Positions 2,326 to 28,056 of a stretch of 32,000 nt of DNA are shown here, piece by piece. A model generated the notes under the pieces. The model was given only the letters and a program-made list of their open reading frames with translations, was not told the origin of the DNA and did no database searches. Origin of the DNA: Methanothermobacter thermautotrophicus str. Delta H (GTDB taxonomy: Archaea; Methanobacteriota; Methanobacteria; Methanobacteriales; Methanothermobacteraceae); NCBI RefSeq assembly GCF_000008645.1, contig NC_000916.1, positions 510,001 to 542,000 of the forward strand. The letters run 5' to 3'. The stretch's first letter is position 1; each line of letters opens with the position of its first letter. Both the position numbers and the translations under genes were made by a program.

Positions 2326-3258
2326 ATGTTAGTGACCATCTTTGCCCTTATCGGATCCAGTCAGGCCGTCCAGATAGGCAATACAAGTTACGGCTATGTT
2401 GAGAAGGACTACTACGGTAACCAGAGCTCCAATGAGACCATAGGACTCATAATAGGGGTTCATCCCCGTGAGTCAGGTATACATGAAGCCGTGAGGAAGA
2501 CCCTCCAGACCTCAAACCTCACAAAAAGATACGTCCTCTACAGCGTCCATGTGACATCCAATGCCTACGACTACTCGAAGGGCCGTATGAACGGCCAGCT
2601 ACTTGCAAGGAACTTCATTGTACCTGATGTAAAGAATGAGAAGCCCATGCTGGTCATTGACTGCCATGAAAACCTTTACCGTCAGAGTGGATACGCATAC
2701 CCCCGCTTCCTCTATGTGATCTCAGAGAACCTTGCAACCATAAATTACACGGAACAGATAGTATCCAGGATGGGCTTCCTGAGAGTATATACACCCCCAA
2801 AGGCAACGAGTCCTCAGTACGTGACAGTGCCGATAGCCTCACAGGGATACAGCACCATAATATATGAGACCTATAAATATGACAGCCAGTCAAGAAAGCT
2901 CAGCGACGCAGGTATGTTCATATCATGCCTTGAAAGCCTCAGAACCTACATTTCAAGGGGTATAAACATCACTTCAAGTAGCCCGGCTGCGGGAGCTGTA
3001 ACCTCAAGGAGGCCGATAATAAGGGTCACCTTCTCAAAGACAATAAAACCTGGAAGGTACTGGAGCAGGGTAACCCTCAAAAACAGGTATGGTAAATCTG
3101 TGAGGGTCAGGACATGGGTTTCCGGTAACACCCTCTATGTGAAACCAGTCTACAGGCTATCCCGGAACAGCTGGTACACCCTCACCATACCGGCCGGTGC
3201 ACTGGTTGACGCCCCAGAGAATAAATGGACGCTTAGGTTCAGGACCGGGAGAAGATAG
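2326..3258 (+). CDS. Secreted protein: N-terminal HxxE...H putative zinc-hydrolase-like domain plus C-terminal SbsA/Big_5-like Ig domain
   Basis: Hydrophobic N-terminus ending SSQA/VQ looks like a signal peptide. GVHPRESG (HxxE) and VIDCHEN resemble M14/AstE-type metal ligands. The last ~95 aa (SSSPAAGAVTSRRPIIRVTFSKTI...GNTLYVKPVYRLSRNSWYTLTIPAGALVD...LRFRT) fit the SbsA-Ig pattern. The domain assignment is from motif memory only. Confidence 0.55.
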   Translation: MLVTIFALIGSSQAVQIGNTSYGYVEKDYYGNQSSNETIGLIIGVHPRESGIHEAVRKTLQTSNLTKRYVLYSVHVTSNAYDYSKGRMNGQLLARNFIVPDVKNEKPMLVIDCHENLYRQSGYAYPRFLYVISENLATINYTEQIVSRMGFLRVYTPPKATSPQYVTVPIASQGYSTIIYETYKYDSQSRKLSDAGMFISCLESLRTYISRGINITSSSPAAGAVTSRRPIIRVTFSKTIKPGRYWSRVTLKNRYGKSVRVRTWVSGNTLYVKPVYRLSRNSWYTLTIPAGALVDAPENKWTLRFRTGRR

Positions 3259-3281
3259 GGTAGAAAAAAACCATTCTTCAT

Positions 3282-3291
3282 TTATTTTTTA
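3282..3291 (+). terminator. Oligo-T tract (tttatttttt) after the 2326..3258 gene
   Basis: T-rich run about 25 nt after the stop codon. Confidence 0.3.
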
Positions 3292-3399
3292 GAATTGTTC
3301 TAATGATGGATATGTAAGCCTAGAGAATCGTTGGGAGATCTTTTCTTTTTCTGGATTATAAAACTGCAGGATAAAAGCGCTTCTGTGCTGTTTTCTACA

Positions 3400-4191
3400 C
3401 TAACATTTCATTAATTCCCTGATGATTTCATCCACTTCATTTTTAACAGCATATGCTCCCAGTGATTCCCCTTTTAGATTCATTTTGGTTATAGCTGGTG
3501 AATAAGGTAGAACACCTTTAATTTCGTTACCCTCTGAAGTTAATAGTTCTGTCAAAATTGGCTCCGTTTCCTCATCAATTTTGTTGAGGATTACTCCAAA
3601 ACGTTTATCTGCTTCATGGGTAAGTTTTGCAGCCTTTTCTGCTAGTAGAACTGCATCACTGGAAGGATCTACCACCATCACTACAGCATCTGCCCCCTCC
3701 ACTATTCCACGCCCGAAGTGTTCTACTCCTGCTTCAGTATCTACTAAAACCCATTGATCTTCTTCTAATCTTACATGATTCAGGAAATCTCTCGTTACAG
3801 CTCCCATAGGACAGGCACATCCCTCCATTGCATGATCAATTTTTCCTATCTGCATTAAACCTAAAGATCCAACCCAGCACACAAATTCCTGTGATAGACT
3901 CTCTAGATCAAATTTTTCCCTGAAAAGTTCGGGTTCAGTTTCCCCATCTCTGATCATTGACCTCAACTTTTTCATTACACGAGGTTTACCGCCAAGATAA
4001 TCCATGAGAGTTTTCTCTGCTGGCTCAATTCCTAAGATCCCACTTAATCCAATATTAGATTCATCCGAATCAACAACCAGGACCCTTTTTTTCTGTTCTT
4101 TAAGTGTGTGAGCTATTAAAGTTACCAGCGTGCTCTTTCCACTTCCGCCTCGACCACTAATAATTAACTTGGGCATGCCGAAACCTTCCAT
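3400..4191 (-). CDS. CooC/AcsF-family (MinD/ParA-type) nickel-insertion accessory ATPase-like protein
   Basis: Deviant Walker A GRGGSGKST; VVDSDES; CxC metal motif EGCACPMG; DTEAGVEHFGRG. These are the signature blocks of CooC-type maturation ATPases. A more likely start is ATG 4176 (MPKLIISG...). Confidence 0.8.
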   Translation of the reverse strand: MEGFGMPKLIISGRGGSGKSTLVTLIAHTLKEQKKRVLVVDSDESNIGLSGILGIEPAEKTLMDYLGGKPRVMKKLRSMIRDGETEPELFREKFDLESLSQEFVCWVGSLGLMQIGKIDHAMEGCACPMGAVTRDFLNHVRLEEDQWVLVDTEAGVEHFGRGIVEGADAVVMVVDPSSDAVLLAEKAAKLTHEADKRFGVILNKIDEETEPILTELLTSEGNEIKGVLPYSPAITKMNLKGESLGAYAVKNEVDEIIRELMKC

Positions 4192-4197
4192 CTTGAA

Positions 4198-4744
4198 TTA
4201 TTCCATCCTACAGTTCCAGTTATAAGGGATTATATCATTATCAAGAGGATTGACCCTCCTTTCATCAACATTTTCAGGATCGTAAAGAAGAGAAGGCATT
4301 CCGATTACCACCGATATTTTATTACCTATATTTTTCGTACCGTGAAAAATTCCAGGAGGGATATAGACTACACAGGGACATTTTTCACCCATAAATATCT
4401 CATTAAGGACCTGATATGTAGGTGAATCTTCCCTGTAATCATATAGGGCAAGCTTTACCATTCCCACGACACAGATCAGACGATCTTCCTGTTTAGAGTG
4501 AAGATTCCAGCCCTTGATCATCTTTGGATAGGAATATGAAGCAATTAATTTGCCTGATATTCTCTCCTTTCAGTTTCTTGTCATCCAAACGAAGGAGTTC
4601 CATCAGGAATCCCCTTTCATCACTGAACATTTTCAGATCATTTATAACCACTCCGTCAATGAGTTTTTCTCCATAAAAACCTGGAATATTTTGAACTCGT
4701 GGCTTTTCCAGTTCATCAAAATTTTTTAAACTTTTTGGTTTCAT
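4198..4744 (-). pseudogene. RmlC-like cupin (dTDP-4-dehydrorhamnose 3,5-epimerase family), frame broken by one extra base at about 4543
   Basis: ORF 4493..4744 gives ...FSDERGFLMELLR...GENIRQIN. Skipping base 4543 continues the reading as ASYSYPKMIKGWNLHSKQEDRLICVVGMVKLALYDYREDSPTY...IPPGIFHGTKN (ORF 4198..4521). Together they form a full-length (~180 aa) RmlC-type cupin. Confidence 0.75.
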
Positions 4745-5379
4745 TCGCGGGTCTCCCTTTTTTCATACATCCATGCTAAAGGATCCTTGCCATCCGGGAA
4801 CATTGCACCGTAGGGTTCAAATTTATTGATATCGCTAACAGTGCAGAAATGCATTCCACGATCCGATTCTACCATCATTAAAGGGTTAGCCTTCTCTATG
4901 TCCCATGAACCATCTTCTGGATTGTAGATATCATCGTTCACTTCAAGATGCACAACTTTACCGAGGATCAATAAATAAGGAAAGCCTTCATACTCATCTT
5001 CATAAATGTTATGCAGTTTACATTCCATCCATGCATAACACCCTTCAATTCCCGGTGCTTTAACCTTTTTTGAGGGTCTTTCCTTTAAATCCGCCAGTTC
5101 AAATTCATTAACATCAAAAGGAACATGCGAAGCTGTTGGTATCACTTTATCAACCATTTCAACCCCTGGCATATTAATAACAAATTCCCCAGTGTCTTTG
5201 ATATTAACAACTGTGTCTCTCATCTTTGCTGAAGCCACACAGATCAGATCAAAGGGGCGTAAAACTGGCATAACACATGAATAAGGTGCTATGTTCCTAA
5301 TTCCATCTTTACTTGTCGTTGAGATAAATGTCACTGGCAGCGGTATCAGAGATTCTCTCTTAAAATTTTCAAGTATCAT
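4741..5379 (-). CDS. Flavin reductase-like (FMN-binding split-barrel) domain protein
   Basis: [26 protein letters not shown]...[26 protein letters not shown] matches the flavin reductase-like domain pattern. There is a 4-nt overlap with the downstream cupin gene. GGTGAT Shine-Dalgarno-like sequence lies before the ATG. Confidence 0.7.
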
Positions 5380-5879
5380 ATTATCACCAATCCATAATTT
5401 TTTTCCTCTCGTATATATAAATATTAGTTCTAAATCAAAAAGTATTATTATTTTGCCGTATATTCTTTAATGCTTATTACTACTTCCTGTAGTGGTGGTT
5501 TAAAGTTGAGGGAACTCGTGGAGTATGTATTATCACATCCTCCAAAGAAAATCAAAAACAACAATCACTCAAAAGAATTCGCTGGAAGTTCAGATAACCT
5601 ATACGAGAATCTTATGGATTTAGTGCTGGATTAGCTAATTAAATTGAGTTAAAAAATGAAATGGGGATTCTAACAGTATCCTGGATCAAAATACGAATAT
5701 AGGTGGCAAAATTATATAAGGAAGACATTAAAGATCTGAACACTTTCAGGGGATTATTATGAGAGCTGCGGATTATATAAGATATTCTATCTGAATCAGC
5801 AGCAGAACCGAAGAAAAAAGAAGGATAGAATTCCACAGCAGCTGAAGCCGCCTTAAATCCGCCGAGTCCATTTCAAGTT

Positions 5880-6545
5880 TCAGAGGATACCGTTCCTTTT
5901 AAGGAGCCTCCTGGGGTTCTTCACAAGCGCCTCCTCCACTCCGGACTCGGTTAGACCTGCCCCGAGGCCTATCCTCCGTGCCATCTCATAGTCGATCAGA
6001 TCCCCCGGTGCATGGGTATCCGTGTCAATCACGATGGGGACACCAACCTCCCCTGCAATGGCTGCCACGTGACCATTACCAAGGCAGTGCCCCTTCCTGG
6101 CACTTATCTCAAGGGTCACATCATTCTCACGGGCCAGTTCAACGTCCTCAATCGTTATCAGGCCCGGATGGGCCAGTATATCAACCTCCGGGCAGCTTAC
6201 CGCTGCATGGTTGGTGCCCGGGATCACCGGCTCCACCAGGGTTTCGCCGTGTACAACAATCACCTCGGCCCCGAGCCTCCTTGCCCTCACTGCAAGTTTC
6301 TCAATTATCTCAACGGGCGCATGTGTGATCTCAGCCCCCGGGATAACCGTGATGTCCCAGTTATCACCTATGTCCTCCACGGCGTCGATGAGGTTTGTTA
6401 TGGTGTTTATGTTCGAGGCGTCTATGTGGTCAGTGATGGCTATTGCCTCATGTCCAAGTACACAGGCCCTCCTTGCAAGTTCGGATGGCAGGAGCTCACC
6501 GTCACTCAGGAGGCTGTGGGTGTGAAGATCTATCCTCTTTCTAAT
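5880..6545 (-). CDS. PHP-domain metal-dependent phosphoesterase; conserved N-terminus has no canonical start codon
   Basis: The track ORF (5880..6380) starts at MEDIGDNW. The same frame stays open upstream and encodes (I)[44 protein letters not shown], the metal-binding N-terminal PHP motif. No ATG/GTG/TTG occurs in that frame between the stop at 6564-6566 and 6380. Confidence 0.7.
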
Positions 6546-21117: not shown

Positions 21118-22005
21118 CTAAAAACTGTATAATGTGTTCAGAAGTTCAAGGGTAACTGACTCCAGTTCCTTTTCATCGAGTTTCTGGAGTATCTCAACTG
21201 CGGCCCTGAAACTGGATGCAACACCATCAGCATTATTCCTTATGAAGTCAAGGGTCCCGAGGAGGACCAGGGCTACTGCGAGGCCAAGCTCATTATTTGT
21301 TTTCCTGAAGAGCGCCTCAGCCTTTTTAAGGTATCTCCGGGACTCATCAAAGTCCTCATTTTTAAGGGAATAGAGGCCAAGGAGTAGCTGGAGTGATGCC
21401 TCAGTGGATGTGTCACCTATATCCCTGGCAATCTGGTAGGCCTCCATTATCTGTGAGATTGAATCCTCATAGGAACCTGCCTCATAGAGTGTTAGGGACT
21501 GGACACTGTCAACCAGCCTGTTAAGCAGGGGCTCAATGACCTCAAGGTCAACCTCCGGCATCCCGGATTCAGACTCCTCCCGGAGCCTGTTGATGCTGGC
21601 TATATCCATGGCCTCCCTGATCTTCTCAACCTCCTTGATCTTCTCCCTTAGATCAGCCCTTAGAGGTGAGTTAACTGATGTGTAGATTCTGAGGGCCTCC
21701 ATGAAGTATTCCATGGCGGTCTTAACCTTTCTATCGCTGAGGTAGACGTCACCCATGGAGTCAAGGGCAAAGGCCATGAGTTCCTCGTCATTCATTTCAG
21801 AGGCCACCCTGTAGGCCCTTTCAAGGTAATCAAGGGCCTCGCGAGTATCACCCTCCTCGGCGTAGAATCCTGCTATCCTTACAAGGGTGTCAAATTCCTC
21901 CTCAAGAAGATCTTCAAGTTTTCGGAGATACTTCTCAAGTGATTCGCCCTCATCTTCACCCCTGAGAAAATCAAAGATTCCCAGAACAGCAAATATCATC
22001 ATCAT
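21118..22005 (-). CDS. TPR-repeat protein
   Basis: Repeated ~34-aa helical units with (A/G)xxY...A(L/I)xxY(F/L)xxA patterns, e.g. ALDYLERAYRVA, AMEYFMEALRIY, SRRYLKKAEALF. Confidence 0.7.
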   Translation of the reverse strand: MMMIFAVLGIFDFLRGEDEGESLEKYLRKLEDLLEEEFDTLVRIAGFYAEEGDTREALDYLERAYRVASEMNDEELMAFALDSMGDVYLSDRKVKTAMEYFMEALRIYTSVNSPLRADLREKIKEVEKIREAMDIASINRLREESESGMPEVDLEVIEPLLNRLVDSVQSLTLYEAGSYEDSISQIMEAYQIARDIGDTSTEASLQLLLGLYSLKNEDFDESRRYLKKAEALFRKTNNELGLAVALVLLGTLDFIRNNADGVASSFRAAVEILQKLDEKELESVTLELLNTLYSF

Positions 22006-22038: not shown

Positions 22039-22092
22039 TCCAGATTTAAATACCTATTTCCGGAAGACGTAATAGCTCCAGATTTAAATACC
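22039..22092 (-). promoter_or_regulatory. Two perfect 16-bp direct repeats (tccagatttaaatacc), each containing the palindromic TATA-like ATTTAAAT, upstream of the TPR gene
   Basis: Copies at 22039-22054 and 22077-22092 (38-bp period). The proximal ATTTAAAT lies 39-46 nt upstream of the ATG at 22005, a plausible archaeal TATA box position for a short leader. Confidence 0.4.
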
Positions 22093-22146: not shown

Positions 22147-22261
22147 ATTGCCCTTCATGTTATCAGCCCACTTTAATGCCCTGATCCGTTATCCTCGGAT
22201 ACAAGCAATGAGTTATTGCCCTTCATGTTATCAGCCCACTTTAATGCCCTGATCCGTTATC
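22147..22261. repeat. 47-bp perfect direct repeat (22147-22193 and 22215-22261) duplicating the 3' end of the KaiC-like gene
   Basis: attgcccttcatgttatcagcccactttaatgccctgatccgttatc occurs twice. The second copy covers the last 31 nt of CDS 22231..22905 including its stop, plus 16 nt of 3' flank. Confidence 0.95.
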
Positions 22262-22905
22262 ATGTAGGGTGCCTCCGTCCTTTCACCATCCATTACAGCA
22301 GATATCACTGATCCATCCATCTGGATGTGCACATCAAAGAGGCCGGGTATCTCCTCCTCTATATCCTCATCAGCAACACCTGCTGTATATGTCACGAGGG
22401 CGATGCCCCCCGCATCCCTCACACGGTCATTGTAGGCCTTCAGAACCCTTAGAACAAGTTTTGGGGGGTTGAATGCCAGTAGAATGGATGCTGAGTCAAA
22501 CACGGATATCATGGTGCCCTCCTCCTGGTAGAGGCTCCTCGTCGATATCCCCACCTTCACCATGAGGTCCGTTGTGTTCTGGATGGCCGAGTACCTCACG
22601 TTTCCAGAGTCCCGGGGTTTACCCCCTGCAAGACCTGTGGGGAGGTCTATTACATGAAGTTTATCTGCGAGGGACTGGATGAACCAGTTGAATGCCATGG
22701 TGTTCCTCTGAAGATCCCTGTAACCGTATTCAGCCGCTATGAAGAGGCAGGGGTTCCGTCTCTGAAGGGCCCGGTAGGTGAACTCTGTTGCAAGTACTGT
22801 CTTACCAACCTTTGGGGGGCCTGTTAACAGCATGAGGTACCCTGGCTCAGGTTTGCCGAGAACAGCGTCAAGACCCGCTATACCTGTGCTGTAGTTTTCG
22901 CTCAT
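22231..22905 (-). CDS. KaiC/RecA-superfamily ATPase, single domain (KaiC-like paralog 2)
   Basis: GIAGLDAVLG...GYLMLLTGPPKVGKTVLATEF (Walker A), VFDSASILL (Walker B-like). ~224 aa, similar to archaeal single-domain KaiC/FlaH-like proteins. Confidence 0.75.
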   Translation of the reverse strand: MSENYSTGIAGLDAVLGKPEPGYLMLLTGPPKVGKTVLATEFTYRALQRRNPCLFIAAEYGYRDLQRNTMAFNWFIQSLADKLHVIDLPTGLAGGKPRDSGNVRYSAIQNTTDLMVKVGISTRSLYQEEGTMISVFDSASILLAFNPPKLVLRVLKAYNDRVRDAGGIALVTYTAGVADEDIEEEIPGLFDVHIQMDGSVISAVMDGERTEAPYMITDQGIKVG

Positions 22906-22906
22906 G

Positions 22907-23608
22907 TTATCCCTCGTGGACCACCTTAATGCCTGAATCGTCTATGGTATAGGGGGCGCTGACCCTGCCTGTCCCCACCATCGCCTCAACTGTAAGTTCG
23001 GATCCATCGAGGTGTATTATGTTATCAACAACTGCCTTGAGCATGGTCTCCACCTTCGGATCAGCCGAACCCTCGGTGTAGGTTACCACAGCTGTTCCAC
23101 CGGCTTCCTTGATCCTCATTATGTATGCTGTAAGAACACGGACTATTAGCATCTCATCATTGAAGGCCATGAGGGTTGTGAGGGAGTCAAGGACCGACCT
23201 GAACATGCTGTAACGGTTCGTGATGTTCCTTATGGCAACCCCGAGTTTCACCATAATATCTGTGGGGTTGTGGACCGATGAGGAGAAGTATGTGCTGCCC
23301 TCATCACCTGAAGGACCTGATATGCTGGATATGGCGTCTATCACATAGAGGAGTTCCTTCTGCAGGTATGATTCAGGGTCCATGCCAAGTACAGCCATAT
23401 TCCTTTTCAGGTCGGATAATCCATAATCTGCAGATATGTAGAGGCACGGTTCATCCATCTCAGCCCCGCCGGCTGCAAACCCATAGGCGAATATTGATTT
23501 ACCGACCTTCGGTGGACCGTAAACCATGGTAACAGTGTTTTCAGGTATGGAAGCGCCGCCCATGAGTTCATCGAGGCCCCTTATTCCAGAAGGAATTCTG
23601 ACAATCAT
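22907..23608 (-). CDS. KaiC/RecA-superfamily ATPase, single domain (KaiC-like paralog 1)
   Basis: GIRGLDELMGG...VTMVYGPPKVGKSIFAYGF (Walker A), SVLDSLTTL (Walker B-like). Its C-terminus (PYTIDDSGIKV) is paralogous to the neighbour's (PYMITDQGIKV). A 1-nt spacer separates it from the next gene. Confidence 0.75.
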   Translation of the reverse strand: MIVRIPSGIRGLDELMGGASIPENTVTMVYGPPKVGKSIFAYGFAAGGAEMDEPCLYISADYGLSDLKRNMAVLGMDPESYLQKELLYVIDAISSISGPSGDEGSTYFSSSVHNPTDIMVKLGVAIRNITNRYSMFRSVLDSLTTLMAFNDEMLIVRVLTAYIMRIKEAGGTAVVTYTEGSADPKVETMLKAVVDNIIHLDGSELTVEAMVGTGRVSAPYTIDDSGIKVVHEG

Positions 23609-24790
23609 TCAACCACCGTATAGAAGTCCGAGGAGCGTGTCGAGGGCATCCCTTACACCCCACCCCTCCGTCACCGAGGCGGGTACTATGGGGACATCCG
23701 CTCCAAGTTTCATCATTTCCCTTATCTCCTCAGGTGAAAGGGCTCCAGGGAGGTCCTGCTTGTTCGCAACAACGACCTTGGGTATAGCTTCGGCCCTTGT
23801 CTTCCTTATCATCTCCTTGGCCCTTGCGAAGGTCTCGGGTGCAGTTGAATCAAGGAGTATGAATGCGCCAACAGCCTCCCTTGAGAGCACATCAAGTATC
23901 ATGTCAAATCTCTCCTGACCGGGAGTCCCGAAAATATCCGCCATGAAGCCCTTATATTCAAGGTGACCTATGTCCATTGCAATGGTTGTGGGGAATGCCG
24001 AAAGGGCCTTCCTGTCCACCGAGACCGACTTCGTGGCTATTGCCCTGACGAAACTTGATTTCCCGGAGTTGTAGGGGCCTGTTACAAGTATCTTCGGTAC
24101 ATAGACCTTAACGCCTCCGGGCTGAACAACAAAGAAGAGTACCATGGTTGATGGGGGTTCTGACCAGGCTGAATTGGCCACCATGAAGCCCTGACCTATT
24201 ATGACCCTCTCCTCGATCGTCCTGAGATTCACGACACAGTCCATGCTCTCCCTGAGCTTATCAATGAGTTCAGGTTCATAGTCCCATTCAGTGAAGAGGT
24301 AGACGAGGTTCACATCCAGTTCAGAGGCCCTTCTGTTCCATGCTTCAACTATCTCAAGGGTGTCACCGTTGCCAAGGTAGTCTATAATGACTGAAAGATT
24401 GTTTATTATCCCAACACCGCCGGGTATATCATTTATGGCATTAAGAACAACATCCTTTATCTCGGAGTAGTCATTAACAGTATAACGCTGATCTGATGGC
24501 ATCCCAAGGAACGGTGAGCTACCATCTACAAAGAAAAGGTTGCCATTTTCAATATGTGACTCTATATCCCAGCCATAGGATCTGAATTCATATATTATAC
24601 TCTCAGGTTCCTCAACATTTGTGAATATGAAACCTCTGGTCCCCTCATCCAGGCGGCCGTTTAGCATCTGGTAACCGAATGCCTCATAGTCAACACCCGG
24701 GGATGCTGAGAACATGATGGAGGCTCCCTCCTTCACTCCGCCGCCCAGAAGGTCGTCGAGCTTCGGAATGTATGTCTTATTCATGTTCAC
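23609..24790 (-). CDS. Fusion protein: N-terminal KaiC-like domain lacking Walker A plus C-terminal small Ras-like (MglA/Arf-like) GTPase
   Basis: The N-terminal ~230 aa begin like KaiC-type proteins ([34 protein letters not shown]), but GxxxxGK[ST] is replaced. The C-terminal part has G1 [10 protein letters not shown]3 [11 protein letters not shown] and G4 NKQD. GTGA overlap with the Roadblock gene stop; its own TGA abuts the next ATG. Confidence 0.75.
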
Positions 24791-25167
24791 ATCTCCCTGA
24801 GGATTTCATCCACCTGTGCTGCACGTGAATCCATCTCAAATAGCAGAAGCCCGAGCTGGGCCTCTGGTTCTGCCAGGGCCGTGAATATAGCCTTCTCCCC
24901 TGCAGGTTTGAGTATGATTATCCCCTTCTCGGTCCTCACGGTTATCTCAGAAACAGTTCCTGTGTTCATCTGACCTGAAGCTGCCTCTGCAGCACCCATT
25001 ATCGTTGAACAGAGGGCTGAGAATATTCTTGCATCAACATCCGGAGGTGTCCTTGCATTTATGAGCAGCCCCTCCTTTGAAACAATACCCGCAGCCCTTA
25101 TCTGACCCACCTGCATAAATGCAGATAGAACATCATCCAGCTTTTCCTTCTTTGTCTTGGTCATCAA
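24787..25167 (-). CDS. Roadblock/LC7 (MglB-like) domain protein
   Basis: ~126 aa with the typical pattern ...[44 protein letters not shown]...[26 protein letters not shown]. Confidence 0.8.
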
Positions 25168-25238
25168 TACACCCCAGTAACCCTGTGACCGGTTATCATA
25201 AGCCGCAACCCCGGTGAGGAGTATTACAGAGTAATTAT

Positions 25239-25302
25239 GTTACTGACCACTTATATCCCTTTAGATTTTGTCCTCTCAGTTACTGGCCCCTTATATCCTA
25301 TT
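25239..25302 (-). promoter_or_regulatory. Two imperfect 24-bp direct repeats (20/24 identical, 40-bp period), each carrying a TATA-like GGATATAAG (minus strand), upstream of the Roadblock gene
   Basis: gttactgaccacttatatcccttt (25239-25262) vs gttactggccccttatatcctatt (25279-25302). They lie in the 146-bp gap between the pilin-like gene and the Roadblock start (25167). Confidence 0.35.
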
Positions 25303-25313
25303 CAGTCATCTCA

Positions 25314-25812
25314 CTACACCCAGATGGTCTCTGATGTTGTGAACACATAGTGATCTGAAAAGGCAGGGTTATGGTAGGTGTTTGTGAGGTTCTCTGTGCC
25401 GAAGGTCCTTGAGATGGATCTCCTGATGCAGAAGTTAACACGGTCAGAGATGGACTCCCTCAGGGATGGTTTCATGGGTGGACCCGACAGCCACGCCCTT
25501 AAACGGAATTTTCTCCTCCCATAGGTGCTGCTGTAGCCATCTTCAATCAGTTCAACCCTCACAACCCTCACACTGGATGGTTCAAGGAGTTCCGGCTTCC
25601 GGGACTGGTAATCATCAAAGGTGACAGCCGGGTACACAGCGATGGTGTCGGTGAAGGCACCCTCAGATGCCCCGGTCCTTGCAGCTGAGTGTGCCTCCAT
25701 CAGTTCAAGCTGGAACTGTATCTGTCCGGCAAAAAGGACCGCGAGGATCAATGAGATGCCAGCCAGCATCATATACTCTGCTGCAGCCTGACCCTGCCGG
25801 GCCCTGGATCAT
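25314..25812 (-). CDS. Class III signal peptide (type IV pilin-like) protein; N-terminus split from its ATG by a probable 1-nt frameshift near 25797-25806
   Basis: In frame directly upstream of the track start (25772) the sequence reads SRARQGQAAAEYMMLAGISLILAVLFAG. This is a close match to the archaeal class III motif QxSxExxxL following a basic leader ending in G, but the frame is closed by TGA at 25809-25811. ATG 25812-25810 is in the adjacent frame. Removing one base in the cagggccc run gives MIQARQGQAAAEYMMLAG... Confidence 0.55.
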
Positions 25813-25843
25813 TCCATCTGAAAGCATGCACGTGACACCCTCC

Positions 25844-26284
25844 TCAGCTCGCTTCTGAGACCATGATAACCGTCCTGTTATTCCTGGGCGTGTTCCTGAT
25901 GGAGTACCTCCCACCGGGTTCAAGGTAAACCCCGGGTGTCCTGCCATAACCATCAGCAACAACCACCGGGTAAATAGTGGAGAATGCCCTCTGGCCGTCT
26001 GCCCAGCCATAGACCCCGCTTGAGTTGACCAGCACACTGTAGTCATCAGTGTGGTTGAGGCGCTCTGGCAGTTCCACCACCACCTCATGACCCGGTCCGC
26101 CTGCAGTGGCAAGGTTAACAGCCTCTGCAACATCTTCCAGGAGTATTCTCATCTCAAGGAGCCTCTCATCTGAGTAAACACCTTCAAGCCTTGCACCGGC
26201 AATAGATACCATCACTGATGCCAGCAGAAGTGTGAAGAAGAGCCAGGTTACTGCATCTGCTGTCACAACACCTTCTGAATCCAT
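25844..26284 (-). CDS. Small secreted/membrane-anchored protein with pilin-like N-terminus (weaker class III signal candidate)
   Basis: MDSEG/VVTADAVTWLFFTLLLASVMVSIAG: a short leader ending in G, then a T-x-D-x4-L segment and a hydrophobic helix, followed by a ~110 aa beta-rich-looking domain. It sits immediately upstream of the second pilin-like gene. Confidence 0.45.
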   Translation of the reverse strand: MDSEGVVTADAVTWLFFTLLLASVMVSIAGARLEGVYSDERLLEMRILLEDVAEAVNLATAGGPGHEVVVELPERLNHTDDYSVLVNSSGVYGWADGQRAFSTIYPVVVADGYGRTPGVYLEPGGRYSIRNTPRNNRTVIMVSEAS

Positions 26285-26361
26285 GGAAATTATTAATAAA
26301 TTTTATTATATAAATATTACTAACGCTGGTGTATTATAGGTTGATCTACATAGAGTGTAAC

Positions 26362-26784
26362 ATGTACTCCCTCGTGGTCTTCACTGGAGGACCCCACAAC
26401 TTCCATGAACTTGAAGAGTTCATTGAGGATGCAGGCGGTATCATAATACAGAGGGACACATTCAGTGTACACCGCGGTCAGTATTTCCTGAGAAACGAGG
26501 TCAGGGTTCTCTGCATAATCCCCCGCTGCGATGAGGATTCCCTTACTGAAACAGCCCGCAGAATAAAGGGTGAAGTGGAGGGCCTCGATGCCGATGATGA
26601 AACCAGAGAAATGATTGAGTCCATCATGGATGTCTACGACCAGCTTGCAGGTGAAGCATCCTGGACAGCTGAAGATGAAATTGGAGTGGATGGGGGGCTC
26701 CTCCATGAGATGGTGGAAATGGAGCTTCTGGATGTAAGAAGCAGGAACGGGGTGAACGAATACCGCCTTTCAGTACAAAAATGA
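26362..26784 (+). CDS. Hypothetical protein (about 140 aa), intact member of a local two-copy family
   Basis: The ORF starts most plausibly at ATG 26362 (MYSLVVFTGGPHNFHELEEFIEDAGG...); the track start at 26329 is in frame. It has a degraded paralog at 27303-27735. The C-terminus MVEMELLDVRSRNGVNEYRLS is reminiscent of a winged-helix wing. Confidence 0.6.
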   Translation: MYSLVVFTGGPHNFHELEEFIEDAGGIIIQRDTFSVHRGQYFLRNEVRVLCIIPRCDEDSLTETARRIKGEVEGLDADDETREMIESIMDVYDQLAGEASWTAEDEIGVDGGLLHEMVEMELLDVRSRNGVNEYRLSVQK

Positions 26785-27302: not shown

Positions 27303-27735
27303 ATGTACAGCATAATCGTATTCTGTGGAGGATATTACAGGTTCGATGAGTCCAGGGAGTTCATTGAAGACATTGGAGGTCTTATGATCAGCAGAGACGC
27401 TTTAAACATTAGAAAAGGAATATTTTTTCCTCAGAAATGAGCTGAGAGTCCTCTGCCTAGTTCTGAAGATGAAGTGGAGAACGTCACCCGTGAGGCCTCA
27501 AGGATAAGGTGAAATTGAGATACCCGTGGTTGCGGCGGATGCAGAGGATAGAATACTATCCTGCTTCGGGATACACCATATGCTTGCAGGGACTGACTGG
27601 AAATTCCGCTGATGAAAGAGAAAACCTCACAGGAATCCCTGCTGACTGAATCCCCAATACGATGGTGGAAATGGAACTGCTCAAAAGAAGACATGAAGGA
27701 GAATATGAATACCGGATTCCATTCACTGAAGACCG
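27303..27735 (+). pseudogene. Decayed paralog of the 26362..26784 gene (at least 4 frameshifts plus an in-frame TGA)
   Basis: Pieces in successive frames align to the intact copy. MYSIIVFCGGYYRFDESREFIEDIGGLMISRDALNIRKGIFF (frame 0) is followed by FLRNELRVLCLV (frame 1). SEDEVENVTREASRIR returns to frame 0 and GEIEIPVVAADAEDRILSCFGIHHMLAGTDW to frame 1. SADERENLTGIPAD, a TGA, and NTMVEMELLKRRHEGEYEYRIPF are in frame 2. Confidence 0.85.
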
Positions 27736-27798
27736 AGATAGGTTGAAAGGTGGGCATAAAGACATCAGCAATAAATACAACCTCCCACAGATAATGCT

Positions 27799-28056
27799 GT
27801 GGAGGATAAGATGAGAGGAGAAGTTCTCATACCAGCTGGAGTAATTCTGATAGTAGCGGGTATACTTTTAACCTTCATCGGAGGGGCCATAACAGCTGGC
27901 TCCCAGTCAAAGGATAAGGGTGAGGTGAAGGCTGCCGGGGTTGTCATGATAGGCCCCATACCCATAATCTTTGGAAGCGACAGAAACATGGCAATAACCG
28001 GCGTGGTCCTGGCACTGATCCTCATGGTCGTGGCCTATCTCCTCTTCTACAGGTAG
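27799..28056 (+). CDS. Small membrane protein, DUF131/TIGR00304-like
   Basis: Two TM helices flanking KGEVKAAGVVMIGPIPIIFGSDRN, which I recognise as the conserved core of this archaeal family. The likely start is ATG 27811, preceded by GGAGGA. Confidence 0.65.
   Translation: MEDKMRGEVLIPAGVILIVAGILLTFIGGAITAGSQSKDKGEVKAAGVVMIGPIPIIFGSDRNMAITGVVLALILMVVAYLLFYR

Follow-up and report, generated by a model that had tools for sequence, protein, structure and literature searches.

We analysed a 32,000-nucleotide stretch of the Methanothermobacter thermautotrophicus ΔH chromosome (positions 510,001 to 542,000 of NC_000916.1; hereafter the window, in whose numbering all coordinates are given) that carries a run of minus-strand genes for two small pilin-like proteins (pil1 and pil2), a Roadblock/LC7 protein, a fusion of a KaiC-like domain to a Ras-superfamily GTPase, two further KaiC-like ATPases (KaiC2 and KaiC3) and a TPR-repeat protein. 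The window is the original 1997 sequence of this strain. Its seven proteins from this region match AAB85097–AAB85103 (UniProt O26691–O26697) exactly, and by inferred numbering the seven genes probably correspond to MTH_591–597. Alignment to the resequenced ΔH chromosome CP064324.1 found two differing positions in 5.8 kb. The original prediction, made from the letters alone, had proposed that the first six genes form an uncharacterized filament-associated or signalling module. All six co-directional open reading frames (ORFs) were found where it had placed them, at 22231–26284 on the minus strand, and a literature search that included the locus tags MTH592–597 yielded no experimental characterization, as it had supposed.

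Profile searches recovered the anticipated (KaiC-like)–GTPase fusion, with Pfam KaiC (PF06745) aligning to residues 5–231 (E = 4.6e-16; 59.3 bits against a cut-off of 26.6) and Arf and Ras models aligning to residues 233–386 (E = 2.6e-10 and 1.9e-09, respectively). The N-terminal domain (residues 1 to ~225; 24110–24784, minus strand) is a KaiC-like domain of the RecA superfamily; among solved structures, KaiC and the single-domain KaiC-like proteins PH0186 and PH0284 come nearest to it. It has no P-loop where GxxxxGK[ST] belongs, and IINNLS stands in place of its Walker B motif. The loss of the P-loop is conserved in an alignment of ten fusion orthologues, and a true Walker A motif occurs in this domain in none of 78 homologues from many lineages. 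A regular-expression count that had 31 of the 78 fusions keeping Walker A proved to be a false positive from a preceding GGGxPxGK[ST] loop. Judged by these motifs, the KaiC-like domain of the fusion is predicted to be inactivated and catalytically dead, a point that the original prediction overlooked.

The C-terminal domain of the fusion (residues ~226–391; 23609–24109, minus strand) is a Ras-superfamily small GTPase with the motifs GPYNSGKS (G1), GTPGQ (G3, without the Asp) and NKQD (G4), all of them invariant in the ten aligned orthologues; among the 78 homologues, every one keeps the P-loop and GTPGQ, and 68 keep NKQD. The domain scores above the cut-offs for small_GTP (TIGR00231; 51.3 versus 42.5 bits), Arf (40.5 versus 22.3) and Ras (37.8 versus 21.6), and Rab, Arf and MglA (3t12) structures in the PDB match it alike, with E values of ~1e-7 to 1e-8. 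By sequence, it looks like a generic Ras-superfamily member. Because the Walker A and B motifs of the N-terminal domain are lost while the GTPase motifs and the Walker motifs of KaiC2 and KaiC3 are kept, the fusion would join a pseudo-ATPase to a live GTPase beside live ATPases.

The two genes that follow encode the expected pair of single-domain KaiC-like ATPases. KaiC2 (22907–23608, minus strand; 233 aa, AAB85099/O26693) and KaiC3 (22231–22905, minus strand; 224 aa, AAB85098/O26692) match Pfam KaiC with E values of 9.1e-31 (107.4 bits) and 5.2e-14 (52.6 bits), respectively, against the same cut-off of 26.6 bits. As read from the sequence, the Walker A and Walker B motifs are GPPKVGKS and SVLDS in KaiC2 and GPPKVGKT and SVFDS in KaiC3, and on these motifs both proteins are predicted to be catalytically competent. 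The Roadblock assignment of the gene upstream of the fusion (24787–25164, minus strand; 125 aa, AAB85101/O26695) is borne out by Pfam Robl_LC7 (PF03259) over residues 10–99 (E = 1.6e-23; 82.7 bits versus a cut-off of 23), and its nearest solved structures are the Roadblock proteins 9jue_D, 7f8m_A and 7yh1_D and Streptomyces CvnB5 (3leq). We also considered whether it is an orthologue of MglB and rejected this, the NCBIfam model GTPaseActivMglBThm scoring 14.2 bits against a cut-off of 200.

The junctions between these four genes, read from the sequence, make them the tightly coupled unit that had been described. Of the GTGA start/stop overlap proposed for the Roadblock and fusion genes, the overlap itself is present, in that the Roadblock stop codon TGA (24789–24787) overlaps a GTG at 24790, but the fusion more likely begins at ATG 24784, a start favoured by homologue N-termini and by the newer NCBI call that leaves a 2-nt spacer after the Roadblock stop. 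The two genes are tightly coupled whichever start is taken. Further along, the stop codon of the fusion ends at 23609 and the ATG of KaiC2 begins at 23608, so that the two genes adjoin, and the spacer between KaiC2 and KaiC3 is a single nucleotide, at 22906.

Downstream of KaiC3 lies the gene for a 295-aa TPR-repeat protein (21118–22005, minus strand; AAB85097/O26691), an assignment made earlier and now backed by Pfam TPR_12 (E = 2e-18). A TPR gene follows the KaiC genes in 18 Methanobacteriaceae loci, including one in which the whole block has been relocated (L012, described below), and the protein is probably a lineage-specific adaptor of the NTPase module. A perfect 47-nt direct duplication (22147–22193 and 22215–22261) also occurs here: one copy covers the final codons and stop of KaiC3, and 68 nt further downstream its counterpart falls within the KaiC3–TPR intergenic region. 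A 16-nt repeat, GGTATTTAAATCTGGA, occurs twice upstream of the TPR gene, at 22039–22054 and 22077–22092.

In contrast to the tight junctions within the NTPase genes, 146 bp (25168–25313, minus strand) separate the Roadblock gene from pil2. The promoter-like repeats reported in this gap are present: a 20-nt direct repeat, GGATATAAGnGGnCAGTAAC, is found in two copies that are 90% identical (25239–25258 and 25279–25298), with TATA-like cores. The repeat is not conserved outside Methanothermobacter, and we therefore rejected it as a conserved regulatory site; judged by eye, a TTTATATA-type (TATA) box lies upstream of Roadblock in most other loci. The repeated TATA-containing elements upstream of the TPR gene (16 nt) and of the Roadblock gene (20 nt) have alike copy spacing, 38 versus 40 nt, and such duplicated elements may be tandem promoters or a regulator-binding site. 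An Rfam scan found no RNA families in the window.

Upstream of this gap are the two small genes whose products had been called pilin-like on the strength of their N-termini. The first, pil1 (25844–26284, minus strand; 146 aa, AAB85103/O26697), begins MDSEG/VVTADAVTWLFFTLLL, the slash preceding position +1. The second, pil2, differs between sequences of the strain. In the window its ORF spans 25314–25772 on the minus strand (152 aa, AAB85102/O26696), shortened by an absent G, whereas in resequenced ΔH the gene runs from 25314 to 25831 and encodes a class III-signal, pilin-like protein of 172 aa (WBF06841.1). Pairwise alignment places the difference in a G-run at 25792–25794, GGG in the window and GGGG in CP064324.1, and metagenomic contigs also carry the extra G. 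Because the window is one G short at this site, the N-terminus of pil2 is frameshifted and its class III signal is lost. With the G restored, pil2 starts at GTG 25831, 12 nt past the pil1 stop and preceded by GGAGG, and the 172-aa product begins VHAFRWNDPGPGRG/QAAAEYMMLAGISLILAVLFAG, with the class III signal RG/QAAAEY. The 1-nt difference may stem from an error in the 1997 sequencing, from strain variation or from a site prone to slippage. That the 1997 sequence truncates a genuine pilin-like gene is relevant for the annotation of this genome.

Both proteins have a short leader ending in Gly, the junction reading EG/VVTAD in pil1 (Asp at +5) and RG/QAAAEY in pil2 (Glu at +5), and then a hydrophobic stretch. 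A motif MDxxG/x[LV][ST]x[DE]F with a hydrophobic helix is kept in 14 orthologues of pil1. In 15 orthologues of pil2, the motif [KH]G/Q-x-[ST]-x-E-[YF] and a hydrophobic helix are kept, as is a C-terminal NPAFSDxYxFTT..W. Neither protein has a significant Pfam or NCBIfam match, and the Pfam Class_IIIsignal model reaches only E = 0.24 on pil2 (11.8 bits versus a cut-off of 23.7), under threshold. The AlphaFold2 model of pil1 has a helix at residues 9–62 and an eight-stranded beta domain (predicted local distance difference test score (pLDDT) 85.5); that of a pil2 orthologue with 91% identity (P0121) has a helix at residues 12–60 and an alpha/beta head (pLDDT 74). The pilin-like call stands despite the lack of a Pfam match because the N-terminal motifs are conserved and the models have a long N-terminal helix with a globular head, and we conclude that pil1 and pil2 are both predicted type IV pilin-like proteins in leader, hydrophobic helix and overall layout, with better backing than the letters of the window alone could give. 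Some databases name their relatives 'Class III signal peptide-containing', 'pseudopilin PulG', 'TadE-like' or 'pilus assembly protein'.

The pil families are small. Homologues of pil1 form 105 clusters, all in Methanobacteriales, and an exhaustive profile search of 1.84 billion representatives returned 74 clusters for pil2, likewise Methanobacteriales-restricted; this search bore out the small family size suggested by a k-mer homologue search, which had given 7 matches. Among known pilins, the pair most resembles the Epd-type pili (Methanococcus maripaludis EpdA–E and the MTH60 family), with which it shares a leader ending in Gly, a hydrophobic helix and a small globular head. Substrates of the EppA peptidase reportedly have Gln at +1 and Glu at +5, as pil2 does. 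The two proteins differ from Epd pilins in size (146 and 172 aa, against ~70 aa for predicted major pilins) and in their restriction to Methanobacteriales, and their heads have no sequence or fold match to solved pilins and no significant fold match in the PDB.

The NTPase genes have a far wider distribution. Homologues of the fusion form 1303 protein clusters, and a core of Roadblock, KaiC-like–GTPase fusion and KaiC was confirmed at at least 572 places in an archaeal collection with one genome per species. In the 79 best loci we called ORFs and searched them with the window proteins; 78 carry a full-length fusion, 73 of these have a Roadblock gene and nearly all have a KaiC gene. Three gene orders were found. 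In type A, confined to Methanobacteriaceae (62–75% identity to the ΔH fusion), the order is pil1–pil2–(zero to two extra KaiC)–Roadblock–fusion–KaiC–KaiC–TPR, and only in this family does a second KaiC gene follow the first. Type B, Roadblock–fusion–KaiC, is found in ANME-2 (of the anaerobic methanotrophic archaea, ANME), other Methanosarcinales and Methanomassiliicoccales (~50–54%). Type C, KaiC–fusion–Roadblock, is found in Methanoperedens, Methanosarcinaceae, Methanocellales, Hydrothermarchaeales and others (~40–45%). Outside Methanobacteriaceae, the distance from Roadblock to fusion stays between –50 and +29 nt, two loci excepted. The invariant core is thus Roadblock, dead-KaiC–GTPase fusion and KaiC, and it extends across many archaeal orders.

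The neighbours of this core change with lineage. In type B loci (L028 and L031–L043), three conserved, co-directional genes for Cys-rich cytoplasmic proteins lie directly upstream of Roadblock–fusion–KaiC, and one of the three proteins has a V4R domain (Pfam E = 4e-8); these are candidate ligand-sensing inputs in methane-oxidizing archaea. By ORF clustering and Pfam, the neighbours in type C loci are housekeeping genes, namely those for YhbY, S19e of the ribosome and a DNA-binding protein resembling PDCD5. The partner KaiC keeps a canonical P-loop in Methanobacteriaceae and in ANME-2-type loci, whereas the KaiC upstream of the fusion in type C (L048–L085) has the deviant P-loop GPPMSGK[D/E/H] and not GK[S/T], and both KaiC-like domains of the type C core may be catalytically unusual. 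Some genomes have two copies of the module, either on one chromosome (L025 and L087) or in one metagenome-assembled genome (L018 and L020), and two copies were also found for L074 and L079.

Conservation of the pilin–NTPase gene order, a check proposed with the original prediction, holds within Methanobacteriaceae but not beyond: none of the 55 loci sampled outside the family has a pilin-like neighbour. Gap lengths within the family divide the genes in the same place. Across 21 Methanobacteriaceae loci, the median gap is 1 nt from Roadblock to fusion, 0 nt from fusion to KaiC, 37 nt from KaiC to KaiC and 30 nt from pil1 to pil2, against ~480 nt (range 146–631) from pil2 to Roadblock; from KaiC to TPR it is 118 nt. 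In one Methanobacterium genome, the Roadblock–fusion–KaiC–KaiC–TPR block (L012) lies ~80 kb from the pilin pair (L086) on the same contig, and the pilin pair is still at its ancestral site, between McrC-like/THUMP genes and GT4–HTH–DUF530–MetRS. Because the L012 block includes the TPR gene, this gene stays with the NTPase genes when they are parted from the pilins. A second case is the chromosome with two module copies, where only L087 has a pilin pair. The pilin-less Methanobacterium copies (L025 and L023) adjoin genes that look PAS-like, those of L025 lying upstream; downstream of L087, the copy with pilins, the annotation gives a PAS-domain histidine kinase.

These observations lead us to favour, by a modest degree, a reading in which the locus holds two adjacent units: an NTPase signalling switch and a separate pilin pair. 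The first unit (25164 to 22231) would comprise Roadblock, fusion, KaiC2 and KaiC3, probably with the TPR protein, and serve as a signalling switch, cytoplasmic and driven by nucleotides. In it the Roadblock protein, which is probably dimeric, would act on the GTPase domain as a GTPase-activating protein, a guanine nucleotide exchange factor or a platform, a role modelled on the Roadblock proteins of MglA, CvnD and Rag GTPases. The dead KaiC-like domain could serve as an assembly handle by which the GTPase docks on oligomerized active KaiC-like ATPases, as family behaviour would suggest; ATP binding, hydrolysis or autophosphorylation in such a ring would then be linked with whether the tethered switch holds GDP or GTP. 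In Methanobacteriaceae the TPR repeats would recruit a target or output; in other lineages, input or output partners may be others, such as the V4R protein with two Cys-rich proteins in ANME-2 or the putative PAS kinases by the second copies. Such lineage-to-lineage variation of the neighbours is what would be expected of a hub.

The second unit (26284 to 25314) would be the pil1–pil2 pair, most likely processed by the prepilin peptidase of the genome. In Makarova et al. (2016), Methanothermobacter is given exactly one type IV pilus (T4P) secretion ATPase, of clade 1 (Epd-type); clade 1 loci are said usually to include the EppA peptidase and several minor pilins, and stand-alone genes with class III signals are described as common. 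The available portion of its supplementary tables has no entry for this locus. The two proteins are most simply taken as minor pilins or pseudopilins of the single clade-1 system, whose assembly ATPase is not encoded in the window.

Several points weigh against this reading, either in its mechanism or in its division of the locus. The hetero-oligomer, like the contacts between Roadblock and GTPase, between dead and live KaiC-like domains and with the TPR protein, is something we infer from how these families behave elsewhere. Since the type C partner KaiC has a deviant P-loop, docking of a dead domain on a live ATPase may not hold everywhere. Moreover, a 1-nt deletion at 23415 in loci L002–L005, several assemblies of runs SRR29056408–SRR29056420 that are otherwise identical to ΔH, splits KaiC2 into 66 and 163 aa; if the deletion is real, KaiC2 would be dispensable in that culture line, although the deletion could be a homopolymer or assembly artefact. 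As for the division, the pilin pair lies directly upstream of the module in 16 of the 18 Methanobacteriaceae loci with enough flank, and no T-run terminator was read in the 146-bp gap of the window, so that read-through co-transcription and a real functional link are possible. Extra KaiC genes are inserted between pil2 and Roadblock in five loci, and for this reason the pilin pair and KaiC genes could belong together.

The points on the division also support the idea that all six or seven co-directional genes form one filament module, in which the NTPases regulate or power the assembly, placement or retraction of a pil1/pil2 filament, as MglA/MglB and SofG do in Myxococcus or as in pilin-to-CirA signalling in Haloferax. 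It has some further precedent. KaiC-family ATPases and Roadblock arCOG02603 recur near various archaeal T4P loci, according to Makarova et al. (2016), and membrane pilins of Haloferax volcanii influence motility through their H-domain in a pathway with the KaiC-like CirA, which places pilins and a KaiC-like ATPase in one regulatory pathway; this is a precedent and not evidence here, as CirA is in the archaellum cluster, acts on arl expression, involves no GTPase or Roadblock protein and has shown homology only in its KaiC domain. Against a single module, the core is present in hundreds of species with no pilin-like neighbour in the 55 loci sampled outside Methanobacteriaceae, the gap is large, variable and furnished with promoter elements, the relocated block left its pilins at the syntenic site 80 kb away and second copies do without pilins. 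The window also contains no T4P ATPase, platform protein or prepilin peptidase. The adjacency itself is weak evidence because synteny in the family extends over the entire interval between MetRS and the McrC-like gene. Taken together, these results speak against the six genes being one filament-associated module, an explanation that we now regard as unlikely; a functional link between two units is possible and is not required by the data. Of the earlier interpretation, the parts list was right and the signalling half is plausible, but the filament-associated half is weak. A bolder version would have the trio of Roadblock, fusion and KaiC be a new class of hybrid ATPase–GTPase device, ancient in methane-cycling archaea and wired through the TPR protein to two pseudopilins. 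We think this rather improbable; were it true, the state of a tethered Ras-like switch would be dictated by a RecA-type ring, the device would control the deployment of a surface filament or sense the state of the envelope, and archaea would have in it an equivalent of the control that MglAB exerts on type IV pili.

Other explanations centre on single components and seem to us still more doubtful. The three KaiC-family domains, two active paralogues and one dead, recall the CI/CII division of labour in KaiC and might constitute a timer or oscillator in which the GTPase reports slow ATPase activity or autophosphorylation cycles of KaiC2 and KaiC3, with no surface structure involved; a Roadblock–GTPase pair could supply delayed negative feedback, as in the MglA/MglB polarity oscillator. 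Yet KaiC2 and KaiC3 are single-domain proteins of 224–233 aa and not double-domain KaiC, the circadian KaiC models NF006799 and TIGR02655 score 24–69 bits against cut-offs of 408–546, which led us to reject membership of that family, and the locus has no KaiB- or KaiA-like gene. We hold a timer to be very unlikely. The original prediction had also drawn an analogy to ArlH (FlaH) of the archaellum motor, by which the KaiC-like proteins could be accessory subunits of a T4P secretion ATPase and a dispersed part of a pilus motor. ArlH indeed consists of one KaiC-like domain of the RecA superfamily and has a Walker A motif, and KaiC2 has weak matches to NCBIfam ArlH/FlaH models (E = 2.4e-09). The analogy nevertheless fails at the family model, NF052589, on which the proteins reach 18.4–37.2 bits against a cut-off of 215, lower than on generic KaiC-domain models; the operon partners are different, the window has no ArlI/ArlJ, archaellin or T4P motor genes and in the other gene orders the module adjoins unrelated genes, all of which leaves this explanation highly improbable. 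Hardly any weight attaches, finally, to the GTPase being an ArvA-like vesiculating or membrane-remodelling protein with the module driving vesicle budding. Many Euryarchaeota, Methanobacteriota among them, possess ArvA, an Arf-like small GTPase, and the GTPase domain here matches Arf-family models, but ArvA stands alone with an N-terminal amphipathic helix and has DUF2073 (ArvB) and a DUF2072 zinc-ribbon protein (ArvC) as partners, whereas the fusion begins with a KaiC-like domain of 225 residues, is encoded with Roadblock and KaiC and has no DUF2072 or DUF2073 gene in its locus. These different operon partners rule out the ArvA vesiculation system proper.

The NTPase module can be compared with several known systems. 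MglA/MglB, which governs the polarity of T4P and gliding motors in Myxococcus and Thermus, is likewise a Ras-superfamily GTPase encoded beside a Roadblock/LC7 protein, and its GTPase is alike in having a G3 motif without the canonical Asp (GTPGQ here; TVPGQ in MglA) and in appearing among the PDB matches. In our locus, however, the GTPase shares a polypeptide with a dead KaiC-like domain and an operon with KaiC ATPases, the Roadblock protein falls far short of the MglB model (14 bits versus 200) and MglA is no better a match to the GTPase than Rab and Arf are. Methanothermobacter is non-motile, and no link of the module to motility is known. The Streptomyces conservon, a cassette of CvnA kinase, CvnB Roadblock, CvnC and CvnD GTPase, is similar in combining a Roadblock protein and a Ras-like GTPase with a nucleotide-dependent, autophosphorylating partner, and a PDB search with our Roadblock sequence matched CvnB5; the conservon differs in that the partner NTPase of our operon is of KaiC/RecA type and not a histidine kinase, that no CvnC/DUF742 is encoded and that the GTPase is covalently fused to a pseudo-ATPase.

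Closest in kind are the archaeal KaiC signalling hubs and inactivated KaiC (iKaiC) domains described by Makarova, Galperin and Koonin (2017), as far as they are relayed in PMC5847659 and PMC4858521: these, too, include single-domain KaiC-like ATPases and a catalytically dead KaiC-like domain fused to a signalling domain. A 2014 census of prokaryotic small GTPases took in single-domain proteins only. We found no paper on an architecture of iKaiC–GTPase, Roadblock and KaiC, in a search to which the 2017 hub survey was external. Roadblock–GTPase pairs and KaiC hubs are known kinds of system; joined covalently and in one operon they make, as far as we checked, an uncharacterized variant. Comparative genomics had largely anticipated the module, which is conserved, open to experimental test and of relevance for signalling in archaea.

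Little is understood of signal transduction in archaea, and KaiC-like ATPases have been proposed as native hubs of it, of which almost none has been studied. In the present operon a Ras-like switch, a Roadblock regulator and KaiC-type ATPases are coupled physically and genetically. It offers a compact, strongly conserved test case, with 63–97% identity across Methanobacteriaceae, and it is present in ANME and Methanoperedens methane oxidizers. Genetic tools now exist for M. thermautotrophicus ΔH, and our hypothesis is directly testable. The module also bears on how Roadblock–GTPase pairs evolved into systems such as the eukaryotic Rag–Ragulator complex.

Two further features of the window lie apart from the module. 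One is a degraded copy, at 27303–27814 on the plus strand, of the gene found at 26329–26784, which is McrC-like and methanogenesis-marker-7-like; its N- and C-terminal parts align with that gene and frameshifts break it into ORFs of 45–50 aa, so that it is probably a pseudogene. At the other end, the stretch 3000–6000 has a GC content of 0.38–0.42, versus ~0.50–0.55 around it, and holds the genes for a MinD/ParA-type ATPase (3400–4191, minus strand) and a flavin reductase (4741–5379, minus strand), with a Big_5 Ig-like domain protein (2326–3258) just upstream of them; this stretch may be an acquired island.

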